A DNA stretch of 64,000 nucleotides, taken from IMG/VR virus record IMGVR_UViG_3300028591_000008, positions 1 to 64,000 of that record, one strand, 5' to 3'. The translations under genes were made by a program, and so were the position numbers. The notes under the pieces were generated by a model. It was not told the origin of the DNA and did no database searches. It saw nothing but the letters and a program-made list of their open reading frames with translations. Positions within the stretch are counted from its first letter, which is position 1. Each line of letters begins with the position of its first letter. The stretch comes from a virus. Taxonomy: Duplodnaviria; Caudoviricetes. Positions 93-6,610 of this stretch are shown here, one piece after another.

Positions 93-410
93 TTACTCCC
101 CGGCCTTCTCCTTCTTCTTGGCCTCGGCCTTGGCCTTCTTTTCAGCGGCAGCCTTCTCGCGCTCGGCCTTCTTTTCGGCCTGCTCCTGGAGCTTCATCTG
201 GTAGTCGGTGCGCTCCTGCATACACTCGTCATAGTCTTTCTTGACGACTTTCACGACGATTTCCAGCACGCCCTCTTCGCCGTCCTCGACGATCGGCAGG
301 TTGCAGGAATTGGAAGTGACGAGGGCAACATCTTCGCCCTGTTCGGACAGGAAACCCATAATCTGGTTGATGTAACGGGCACGCGCGGCATTGGCAATAG
401 CAAGTTTCAT
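93..410 (-). CDS. Hypothetical early protein with K/A/E-rich coiled-coil tail
   Basis: AAGGAG RBS, own promoter, TAA stop inside a terminator hairpin. Confidence 0.85.
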   Translation of the reverse strand: MKLAIANAARARYINQIMGFLSEQGEDVALVTSNSCNLPIVEDGEEGVLEIVVKVVKKDYDECMQERTDYQMKLQEQAEKKAEREKAAAEKKAKAEAKKKEKAGE

Positions 411-554
411 TTGGTTTTATCTCCTTTCCTTTTGTGATTATAATATACCACACTTTTAGGAAGATTACAAGGGGGAGACTTAGACGTTCCACGTCTAAAT
501 TCGATTTTGGAGAAACTTCACCACATTAAAGTAGTGAAGTCTCTCTTTTGGGAT

Positions 555-1304
555 TTAACGAAGAGTAATTTCCGTTTTGTCCTTATTGATACGGATTTTT
601 GTATAATCGAAATAATAGTCCGTTTGTTCTGCCGTCTTGATATGCAAAGTCTTTTCTACTTTGCGTTCAATGGAACGCTTCGCCATATATTCGCCGGAGA
701 AGTCCGCGCCGTTATCAATACACGCGAAAAGAATCTCCGTTTCAATCTCCGCGTCATTCAATGCCGTATGCGCTTCAATGAAGTCCGTATCATTGAAGAT
801 ATAACGGTAAACCGTTTCGGCGGTGGTGGAATAGTTACCAGTCTCCGTATAATAACTGTTTTCATCACAGAACGCTTTATATATATCATCAATGAGAGAA
901 GCATGAACAAAACCGCGAATATCCTTTACCGGGATATTGTCAAACGGATTGTTACATTTGTACCAGTCACAGTTAAAAGCGAAAACTTTCTCATCGAAAG
1001 AAGAATTGAAAGCATACGCAATCTCAACAGAGAGATTCTTGAAGTCCCGAATCATCTGCTGGCAGATGTAACCGAACTTGTCCATAACAGTAGTGCGGGC
1101 GCGCATTGCGGCGACATACAAAGGACGCTTGTCCGCGTAGTATGCAGACTGAAAAAGCGGGAGATTGTGCCACACTTGTTCCACAACAAAGGAACGGCGG
1201 CAGAGAATCGCGCGGGATTCCGTATCAGCAATGACATAGCCGATATTATAGCAAAAAGGCTTCTCCAAAGAAGTAGTTTCAGTGTCAAAAACGCAGATGT
1301 TCAT
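555..1304 (-). CDS. DEDDh-family 3'-5' exonuclease
   Basis: Motifs VFDTETT, AFNSSFD and HTALNDA; AAGGAG RBS. Confidence 0.88.
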   Translation of the reverse strand: MNICVFDTETTSLEKPFCYNIGYVIADTESRAILCRRSFVVEQVWHNLPLFQSAYYADKRPLYVAAMRARTTVMDKFGYICQQMIRDFKNLSVEIAYAFNSSFDEKVFAFNCDWYKCNNPFDNIPVKDIRGFVHASLIDDIYKAFCDENSYYTETGNYSTTAETVYRYIFNDTDFIEAHTALNDAEIETEILFACIDNGADFSGEYMAKRSIERKVEKTLHIKTAEQTDYYFDYTKIRINKDKTEITLR

Positions 1305-5181: not shown

Positions 5182-5343
5182 ATGGATATTATACCACTAT
5201 CGGCGGCCGCGGTCAAGCGACAGACTTAGACGTGCCACACGTCTAAGTCGGTTGCATACAATTGGTTATACATATCTAACTCAAACACGTCTAAATTGAT
5301 TGTATGTAATCAGTTAGATATGTCTAACTACTAAGCAAGAAGT

Positions 5344-5365
5344 AAAGCAAGTAATACTTGCTTTA
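5344..5365 (-). terminator. Hairpin after the 5366 gene
   Basis: AAAGCAAGTA-A-TACTTGCTTT inverted repeat right after the stop codons. Confidence 0.55.
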
Positions 5366-5548
5366 TCATTCACAACTACTTTTATATTCATTATACGCGT
5401 CAAGTATAGACTCCCAACTACTATGAGCACATGGGGCGCTGCCGTAGGCATTCAGATTCCAAGCTTGAGCAGTATTCAATTTGCCCTTGCTTTCAAAGCG
5501 TTTCTTGTCTTTCTGCGCTTGTCTATCCAGCTCTTCCATGTAGCTCAT
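5366..5548 (-). CDS. Hypothetical protein
   Basis: GAGGAG RBS before MSYMEEL. Confidence 0.7.
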   Translation of the reverse strand: MSYMEELDRQAQKDKKRFESKGKLNTAQAWNLNAYGSAPCAHSSWESILDAYNEYKSSCE

Positions 5549-5582
5549 TTTTATATCTCCTCTCTTTTGTATGGAGGGCTTT

Positions 5583-5780
5583 TCAGCCCTCCACAAAGAA
5601 CCGTTCGAAGTAGTTTCGAGTATATCCGCTCTCAGTAGAAGCGGGATACAGCTTGCCATCAACTTCCAAATCCCACCAGCTATTCAGCCGAAAGAATATA
5701 CTGTGCATCTCTTCAGCGTTTGTAACGCCGATACGGATACCGGTCTCAGGGACGGTGATAATTCTCATTGTAGTTTTCAT
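5583..5780 (-). CDS. Hypothetical protein
   Basis: AGGAGG RBS; lies directly downstream of the hammerhead-like element. Confidence 0.75.
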   Translation of the reverse strand: MKTTMRIITVPETGIRIGVTNAEEMHSIFFRLNSWWDLEVDGKLYPASTESGYTRNYFERFFVEG

Positions 5781-5807
5781 TTTTGTAACCTCCTGTAATC
5801 AATTTGT

Positions 5808-5857
5808 AGCGGTTTCGCTCTTGCTTATCAGCGTCGGACTTTTACCGACGGACCGCC
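5808..5857 (-). ncRNA. Type III hammerhead ribozyme-like element (variant core CUGAUAA)
   Basis: Minus strand reads GCGG-UC-CGUCGG-UAAAAGU-CCGACG-CUGAUAA-GC-AAGA-GC-GAAA-CCGC: stem III, GUC cleavage triplet, stem I, core, short stem II, GAAA, stem III'. Confidence 0.8.
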
Positions 5858-5872
5858 CGGGCCGACGGGGAA

Positions 5873-6346
5873 TCATTCCCCGTCGAACCATTCCTCTAAG
5901 GTCATAAGACTGTTTTCATACAGGGCGTCCAACAGCTTGAAGTATTTAGCGCCGTGCGGCTTATTCAACTTATTGTTCCAAAAAGTCTGAATCGTAACCT
6001 TGTGTTGTCCGGAAGTGCTAACCTTTTCACGAATCAGCCCACAGCTTTCAAGGCATTCCAGAAAAGTCACACGATCAAGAATAAAGCCCTCTTGAGCCGT
6101 CACGGGTAAAGCCGGATTGACAACTGGGACATAGATAACAAGGGAAACGCCCTTGACCAACTTTTCGCCGTAGTTGCCAAGCTCACCCGCGGCCGTCTTG
6201 ACTTCATAATTCTTGTACGCTTTGCGGAAGTCTACGCGTCCTTGCTTGGAAACAACAGCTTTCCGATTAAAAGCGGCCTTTAAGTCACGTTCAAAGGTTT
6301 TACCATTAGCGCCGCTATCCGTCATTTTATAACCATAATCAGTCAT
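5873..6346 (-). CDS. PD-(D/E)xK restriction-endonuclease-fold protein
   Basis: GKTFE...VDF...YEVKT pattern; AGGAGG RBS. Confidence 0.6.
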   Translation of the reverse strand: MTDYGYKMTDSGANGKTFERDLKAAFNRKAVVSKQGRVDFRKAYKNYEVKTAAGELGNYGEKLVKGVSLVIYVPVVNPALPVTAQEGFILDRVTFLECLESCGLIREKVSTSGQHKVTIQTFWNNKLNKPHGAKYFKLLDALYENSLMTLEEWFDGE

Positions 6347-6581
6347 TTTGTTACCTCCTAATCAATACTTTTAATATAGCTTATTTACTCTTATTTGCTT
6401 GCCTTTAGACGCTTGCGCTCTTCACGCGGCCACCATGGGCAGAGGCTTTTCTTACTATGTTCAGTTTTGACGGTTTATACTGTTTGTTACCGGATTGTAA
6501 CAAGTCCAGTCTTTACAACAAGGGTATCACTTAAGATCTTGGCCCGCTCATATCGTGGCTTGGCTTCCCCGATCTGACTAT

Positions 6582-6610
6582 AATATAGCACATGGAAAAA
6601 CAAATTACAA
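6582..6610 (-). promoter_or_regulatory. Sigma-A promoter heading the early region (no palindrome), with ~230-nt untranslated leader
   Basis: TTGTAA-17-TATATT with TG extension. Confidence 0.7.

Follow-up and report, generated by a model that had tools for sequence, protein, structure and literature searches.

Phages have been known since 2011 to place hammerhead ribozymes between their genes. The guanine at position 8 of the core (G8) is conventionally regarded as one of the invariant catalytic residues of hammerheads. In the portion drawn on here, the survey of Perreault et al. 2011 (PMC3088659) describes hundreds of bacterial hammerheads, many of them in prophages, where they flank single genes in an arrangement that implies processing of a long phage transcript. 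A 2-bp stem II is common in this portion of the collection (PMC3088659), and the natural variants given there include U3-A8 covariation, A6C, insertions and a U15.1-A16.1 pair; among the rare core variants, some are active, some weakly active and some inactive. In a type III hammerhead of which Roberts et al. 2023 made every single and every double mutant (PMC9901934), mutants of both catalytic guanines had low activity, and the 3-8 pair was rescued only by a G:C swap. A literature search for the kinetics of G8A found none.

We analysed the first 64 kb (64,000 nucleotides, hereafter the window) of an IMG/VR phage genome record of 124,253 bp with direct terminal repeats. By open reading frame calls and sequence, the genes around the element described here lie on the minus strand. 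The first-pass annotation had proposed a type III hammerhead that lies between two cistrons and reads in their sense orientation, with C3 of the core kept and an A at position 8, and every part that it listed was found on the minus strand:

5857..5808, minus strand: type III hammerhead-family element, placed by sequence and by covariance model R1 (model positions 1-52)
5857-5853 paired with 5812-5808, minus strand: stem III, 5 bp (four G-C and one G-U), plus the pair U5852-A5813 (A15.1-U16.1)
5851, minus strand: C17 of the GUC cut site, read from the sequence, with cleavage predicted between 5851 and 5850
5850-5845 paired with 5837-5832, minus strand: stem I, 6 bp
5844-5838, minus strand: loop I, 7 nt
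5831-5825, minus strand: core CUGAUAA, with C3 at 5831 and A8 at 5826
5826, minus strand: G8A, an A at core position 8 where the conserved base is G, by alignment to the R1 consensus; also present in contig L075
5824-5823 paired with 5818-5817, minus strand: stem II, 2 bp
5822-5819, minus strand: loop II, AAGA
5816-5813, minus strand: GAAA, followed by the returning strand of stem III

Three helices surround the junction, the A15.1-U16.1 pair is in place and position 17 is not a G, as a hammerhead requires. Of the conserved core, C3 U4 G5 A6 N7 G8 A9 / G12 A13 A14, 9 of the 10 named positions match, the exception being position 8. As C3 (5831) is unchanged, the 3-8 position holds a C-A mismatch, which is neither the usual C-G pair nor a compensated U-A pair. 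The stretch 5857..5808 is a real hammerhead-family element of the phage type III kind.

Like the phage and prophage hammerheads in the portion of Perreault et al. 2011 drawn on here, the window element lies on the sense strand in a short gap between genes and follows the CUGANGA/GAAA three-way junction plan with a 2-bp stem II. The U3-A8 variant described in that portion (PMC3088659) also occurs in one of the relatives introduced below, L074. In contrast, the window phage has a single copy rather than a cluster, and an uncompensated C3/A8 core, found here in at least five sequences and only beside a C1.1-G2.1 pair, is not among the variants that the same portion describes (PMC3088659). The core and stem II sequence of the family is absent from the papers searched and from the supplements of that survey (PMC3088659). 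The general arrangement, a phage hammerhead between genes, is already known; the recurrent, uncompensated G8A is the new aspect.

Two Rfam families are also close. With Hammerhead_3 (RF00008; viroids, satellite RNAs and plant retrozymes) the element shares the type III topology, in which stems I and II are looped and stem III is open, as well as the GUC site and loop nucleotides whose conservation would suit a contact between the loops, but its stem II is far shorter and its context is phage DNA and mRNA rather than a circular RNA replicon. With the consensus of Hammerhead_II (RF02276; type II, from phages and metagenomes) it shares GUC, a stem I of the ugCCgg/ccGGca type and CUGAUGAG; however, members of the window family score 10-17 bits against that model, their topology is permuted relative to it (in these members a loop caps stem II, and stem III is open), and they have no pseudoknot with the 3' tail. 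The C3 and G8 mutants of Roberts et al. 2023 concern the same core position, where the 3-8 pair has a structural role in placing the general acid (PMC9901934); single mutants of that construct were low in activity, whereas here nature retains a single G8A in several otherwise intact copies.

How readily such a motif arises by chance was gauged with our own descriptor, which allows one core mismatch. Run on dinucleotide-shuffled 64-kb windows, it gave a mean of 0.48 matches per window, and 0 of 200 shuffles held a match as good as the window element (6 bp or more in stem I, 5 bp or more in stem III, short loops). Because very many windows were read, this result is weak by itself, and the comparative evidence decides. 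Covariance model R1 was built from 33 unique G8 relatives, with the window copy and all A8 copies excluded, and scores the window element at 71.6 bits (E 2.7e-22); canonical members score 61-80 bits. Neither R1 nor Rfam models RF00008, RF00163 and RF02276 detected a second copy in the 124-kb genome.

At the gathering score Rfam found nothing in the window, and relaxing the cut-off to E of 10 over a 451-nt stretch still brought up no hammerhead. RF00008 (gathering 48.5 bits) failed to match the window both at that threshold and at E of 1 to 10, and the best match in a 76-nt search was RF02276 at 10.4 bits (gathering 37). Ten loci with canonical relatives also lacked a hammerhead match at Rfam gathering thresholds; a permissive search of one canonical relative (L018) gave 17.2 bits to RF02276 and nothing to RF00008 at E up to 10. 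Since Rfam likewise misses canonical relatives, the absent match reflects the scope of its models and not A8 alone, and is uninformative about the window copy; Rfam offers no ground for accepting or rejecting the family. A blastn search of INPHARED with window positions 5300-6400 returned no match.

Relatives came from three IMG/VR patterns. The first, which ran from the core through stem II and GAAA into the opening bases of stem III and allowed a purine (R) at position 8, returned two contigs (L013 and L016) that share the architecture, stem II and stem III of the window and have the core CUGAUGA; their stem I differs in sequence from that of the window yet pairs perfectly. The second, a 19-nt word spanning core, stem II and GAAA and blind to stems I and III, matched 44 times in 43 stretches, and about 41 of these 44 combine an intact 6-bp stem I with a stem III of 3-5 bp that varies in sequence, a GUC site and a loop I that fits U-A-N-R-A-G-U. 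The third, in which only GUC, loop I and a portion of stem I were fixed, added members that differ in the stem II loop and at N7. Among the 33 unique G8 members, 9 pairs are changed on both sides (85 cells), a degree of covariation that 0 of 500 shuffles attained, and sliding the partner columns lowers pairing from 95% to 24-42%. Because those 33 rows had been filtered for pairing, the unfiltered list from the 19-nt word is the cleaner evidence.

Canonical CUGAUGA versions such as those of L013 and L016, and covariation of stems I and III among homologues (the 9 pairs), are comparative signs to which the first-pass annotation had pointed, and both are present. It had also been right about the length of stem II, though not in treating it as an anomaly: the 2-bp stem II is invariant in this compact phage type III family and common in the portion of the literature survey drawn on here (PMC3088659). 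Because a 2-bp stem II is thus the family norm and already described, A8 facing C3 is the only unusual feature of the window ribozyme. Across the family there is almost no variation in loop I (U-A-N-R-A-G-U) or in loop II (A-N-G-A), a pattern that would fit a loop-loop tertiary contact. MAG copies come from Clostridia, Eubacteriales, Caproicibacter, Prevotellaceae, Paludibacteraceae and Gemmata, and these taxa point to gut, rumen and some soil bacteria as hosts of the family.

The element sits in the following gene context:

6610..6582, minus strand: sigma-70-like promoter candidate from a consensus scan (9 of 12 hexamer matches, extended -10 TG)
6346..5873, minus strand: P0001, upstream cistron, open reading frame of 157 aa
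5884..5862, minus strand: 10-bp GC-rich hairpin whose 3-nt loop holds the P0001 UGA stop codon (5875..5873), with no U-tract after it
5872..5781: intergenic gap, 92 nt
5794..5789, minus strand: AGGAGG, Shine-Dalgarno sequence of P0002, 13 nt beyond the 3' end of stem III
5780..5583, minus strand: P0002, downstream cistron, open reading frame of 65 aa with no assigned function

This layout of stop codon, hairpin, ribozyme, Shine-Dalgarno sequence and start codon is typical of the family. In the window the stop codon precedes the G of GUC by 19 nt and the start codon follows A15.1 by 32 nt. Across 41 unique members, the upstream stop, where a same-strand open reading frame was found, lies mostly 3-35 nt before GUC (median about 19, with a few up to 132), and a Shine-Dalgarno sequence and start codon follow A15.1, mostly at 11-46 nt (three at 5, 70 and 95 nt). 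In about 30 of the 41, a GC-rich hairpin adjoins the ribozyme on its 5' side, in a region of about 45 nt, and the stop codon often sits in or beside its loop (mean z -2.3); the fold of 5890..5806 in the window has -39.9 kcal/mol and z -3.56. Because no U-tract follows, the stop-codon hairpin resembles an element of mRNA 3' ends or of mRNA stability rather than a terminator. A terminator in the gap was ruled out, there being no U-tract and no terminator-like site called. The count of sigma-70-like sites was not above the shuffled expectation, so 6610..6582, from which a transcript spanning P0001, the ribozyme and P0002 would begin, is a candidate only. For P0002, IMG/VR held no relatives, and Pfam and PHROG gave no match.

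The 3' strand of stem III (CGGAGG) doubles as the Shine-Dalgarno sequence in about a quarter of members, with the start codon 11-14 nt after A15.1 (L018:3040-3091, minus strand; L021, L023, L024, L034, L035, L050, L131, L136, L149, L157, L159 and others). In these members, cutting and loss of the 5' product could expose the ribosome-binding site. Stem III of the window is not part of its Shine-Dalgarno sequence.

P0001 homologues (33-53% identity overall) precede G8 copies of the ribozyme in L013 (53%), L042/L052 (34%) and L027 (35%). Eight other P0001-homologue loci (L001-L008, 45-66% identity) carry no ribozyme, which indicates that the element has been gained or lost at the P0001 junction. 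A hairpin holding the stop codon, different in sequence, is found at these ribozyme-free loci too.

P0001 itself, which appears to be the first gene of an early transcript, had been assigned a PD-(D/E)xK nuclease fold in the earlier reading. It had no match in Pfam or PHROGs, a profile HMM of its alignment found none among PDB sequences, and one-genome-per-species contigs held no relatives. Across 9 homologues G15-K-x-F-E19, D39 and E48-x-K50 are invariant. The AlphaFold model (pLDDT 69.7) resolves the motif region poorly, and Foldseek against the PDB returned nothing significant. A VIA-wide fold search of all PDB representatives placed almost exclusively restriction endonucleases or Hjc/RecU resolvases in its top ranks (Z 5.6 to 3.3). 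The invariant E19/D39/E48-x-K50 and these fold matches, at Z of at most 5.6, lean weakly towards the earlier assignment, and a PD-(D/E)xK-like nuclease fold is plausible for P0001. Between the window and contig L075, described next, the protein is 99.4% identical (one residue differs) despite DNA divergence of about 4%, which indicates strong purifying selection on P0001.

A 2.9-kb metagenome contig (L075) is 95.6% identical to the window, with 47 differences over 5285-6361 (about 1077 aligned positions), and carries an identical A8 element. The longest run without a difference in this alignment, 5775..5971 (197 nt), spans the entire gap; at the rate of difference observed, the probability of no difference in a given 197 nt is near 2e-4, or about 0.01 when the 48 gaps between differences are allowed for. 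We also scanned IMG/VR with identical anchors while asking for a non-G at one of the three guanines G8, G5 and G12. Non-G8 was found in 6 IMG/VR stretches, always as A, and the corresponding scans for non-G5 and non-G12 found 0 each. A metagenome scan with the A8 18-mer returned 32 stretches, 6 of them in the family and the others chance matches in coding DNA.

Between them, IMG/VR and the metagenomes hold five distinct, otherwise intact C3/A8 sequences (window/L075, L071/L084, the L157 type, L187 and L192), which vary in stem III, loop I and N7 (U, A or C). Three contigs, L157, L193 and L194, carry the L157 type, before two different downstream genes. An 83-nt block of hairpin and ribozyme is 100% identical between L157:6272-6354 and L193:6331-6413, whose sole other homologous stretch is 89% identical and whose downstream genes differ; it would seem that hairpin and ribozyme travel as a module from one gene context to another, or that this module marks junctions of recombination. 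A further A8 copy, in L037/L082, has lost the 5' strand of stem III and GUC and is clearly decaying.

All 5 intact A8 sequences have a C1.1-G2.1 pair closing stem I, against 7 of the 33 unique G8 members (Fisher P = 0.0016, on A8 counts that are small and copies that are not phylogenetically independent). In L074 the A at position 8 is compensated by U3, and the resulting U3-A8 pair argues that the 3-8 pair is under selection in the family. A8 is a minority state, present in 6 stretches against at least 55 with G8 among the IMG/VR loci examined, which is at most about 10% of copies; MAG copies are G8 in 10 of 10 cases and A8 in 0 of 10. Since A8 is shared with the diverged L075, affects the sole guanine that varies, and recurs in several intact copies in one context, it looks unlike ordinary decay, and its recurrence looks tolerated rather than random.

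The reading that we favour, with a probability of roughly 0.5, is that the window element is an attenuated variant that still works, cleaving partially, with selection tolerating or favouring A8, and is not a dead relic. Its ancestry lies in a family of compact type III hammerheads that occupy short gaps between co-directional genes in gut, rumen and other phages. In the window phage, the early transcript would start upstream of P0001 and fold into the three-way junction, the 2'-OH of C5851 would attack its own 3' phosphate, and the RNA would be cut between 5851 and 5850. The P0001 message would then end in the protective hairpin and a 2',3'-cyclic phosphate, the downstream message would begin with a 5'-OH inside the stem I hairpin, and both new ends should withstand exonucleases. 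Opposite C3, A8 would form a weaker version of the 3-8 pair that positions the general-acid 2'-OH, so that cleavage much slower than that of G8 relatives, and partial, would be expected. Stacking of the strong C-G pair on position 3 may help to hold the weakened C3-A8 pair together. On the comparative data, slow or conditional cleavage by the A8 copy is more plausible than simple decay.

The strongest rival, a serious possibility even though we lean against it, is that the element is an inactivated relic: a true homologue in which G8A abolished catalysis, kept because the change is recent or was spread by recombination, or as a non-catalytic spacer or stabiliser between cistrons. By the laboratory rule the window copy should be near dead, since G8-equivalent single mutants of a type III hammerhead have low activity (PMC9901934), and some natural core variants in the portion of PMC3088659 drawn on here are inactive. 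Decay, however, should strike the three catalytic guanines equally, against which the scans found 6 changes to A8 and none at G5 or G12. The plainly decaying copy in L037/L082 is what a relic predicts, but every other A8 copy retains its stems, both loops and the remaining core. The L157-type A8 differs from a G8 sister at position 8 alone and could be recent. The window's A8 is kept in two phages that are 4.4% diverged, although the identical 197-nt block around it could be due to recent recombination and not to selection. The ribozyme is dispensable at the P0001 junction, as L001-L008 do without any, and A8 is a minority allele whose frequency of at most 10% is compatible with mildly deleterious alleles in transit; its restriction to the C1.1-G2.1 context (P = 0.0016) nevertheless speaks against a relic.

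A broader version of the favoured reading, which we put forward tentatively and consider rather doubtful, is that C3/A8 hammerheads are a class of phage ribozymes that natural selection keeps in an attenuated or conditionally active state, G8A being tolerated only beside C1.1-G2.1. Their lower rate would set the ratio of cut to uncut early mRNA, or cleavage would depend on conditions, possibly through protonation of an A+ C wobble or escape from an alternative hairpin capped by G-N-N-A.

That alternative hairpin is central to a further rival, which we think improbable: that A8 was selected for stabilising an inactive conformation, making cutting conditional, for example on co-transcriptional folding or ribosome passage. 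With G2.1, nucleotides 2.1-3-4 can pair with 9-10.1-10.2, and the 4-nt loop 5-8 becomes G-N-N-A when position 8 is A. In the minimum-free-energy folds of the window and of L043 (G8, G2.1) this hairpin replaces stem II, but nearest-neighbour energies are equal for A8 and G8, the stability of the G-N-N-A loop is assumed, and three base pairs are weak. G2.1, present in every intact C3/A8 copy, is the sole base that permits the third pair, though its association with A8 may equally reflect stacking support for a weak 3-8 pair or shared ancestry. Least credible of all, and rejected, is a chance hammerhead-like motif or a transcription terminator unrelated to ribozymes: the absence of an Rfam hammerhead at the gathering score (10.4 bits to RF02276) and the 0.48 descriptor matches per shuffle would allow a chance motif, but the comparative data refute it, with an R1 E-value of 2.7e-22, dozens of homologues with covarying stems and an upstream gene common to G8 copies, and a gap without a U-tract or terminator call speaks against a terminator.

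What gives the locus wider interest is that G8A recurs in otherwise perfect copies and in one sequence context, while G5 and G12 were invariant in our scans. If A8 copies cut, they would provide a natural handle on the role of the position 8 base as against its 2'-OH, and on whether phages tune ribozyme speed and with it the ratio of processed to unprocessed early mRNA; were they indeed a selected class, the base at position 8, long deemed invariant, would be a natural tuning knob. If A8 copies do not cut, they would offer a clean example of how such elements die and a warning that intact-looking phage hammerheads are not all active. The module of stop-codon hairpin and ribozyme, and the copies in which stem III is also the Shine-Dalgarno sequence, suggest testable ideas about the effects of cleavage on both mRNA products.

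Another core change, U4 to C (CCGANGA), recurs in at least five otherwise intact members with different stems, and shows no tie to a particular 1.1-2.1 pair:

L044:1932-1983, minus strand: U4C copy
L125:4093-4144, minus strand: U4C copy
L116:11951-12002, minus strand: U4C copy
L166:5115-5166, minus strand: U4C copy
L097:3631-3683, minus strand: U4C copy

Contig L047 has a copy (575-641, minus strand) that is split between stem I and core by a GC-rich hairpin of about 15 nt and has an A at position 8, and 1.7 kb away a second, intact copy with a GUU site (2355-2406). The first search pattern also returned viral contigs with hammerheads of another topology, unrelated to the compact family, in which stem III is looped, stem I is open and the cores are canonical:

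L011:610-633, minus strand: other-topology hammerhead
L014:2264-2287, plus strand: other-topology hammerhead
L012:11819-11843, minus strand: other-topology hammerhead
L015:2779-2801, plus strand: other-topology hammerhead

One phage contig that bears a member of the compact family, L018, also encodes a gut-2 RNA (RF02990; 6734-6781, plus strand, 48.7 bits) and a cluster of five tRNA genes (126-660, plus strand).
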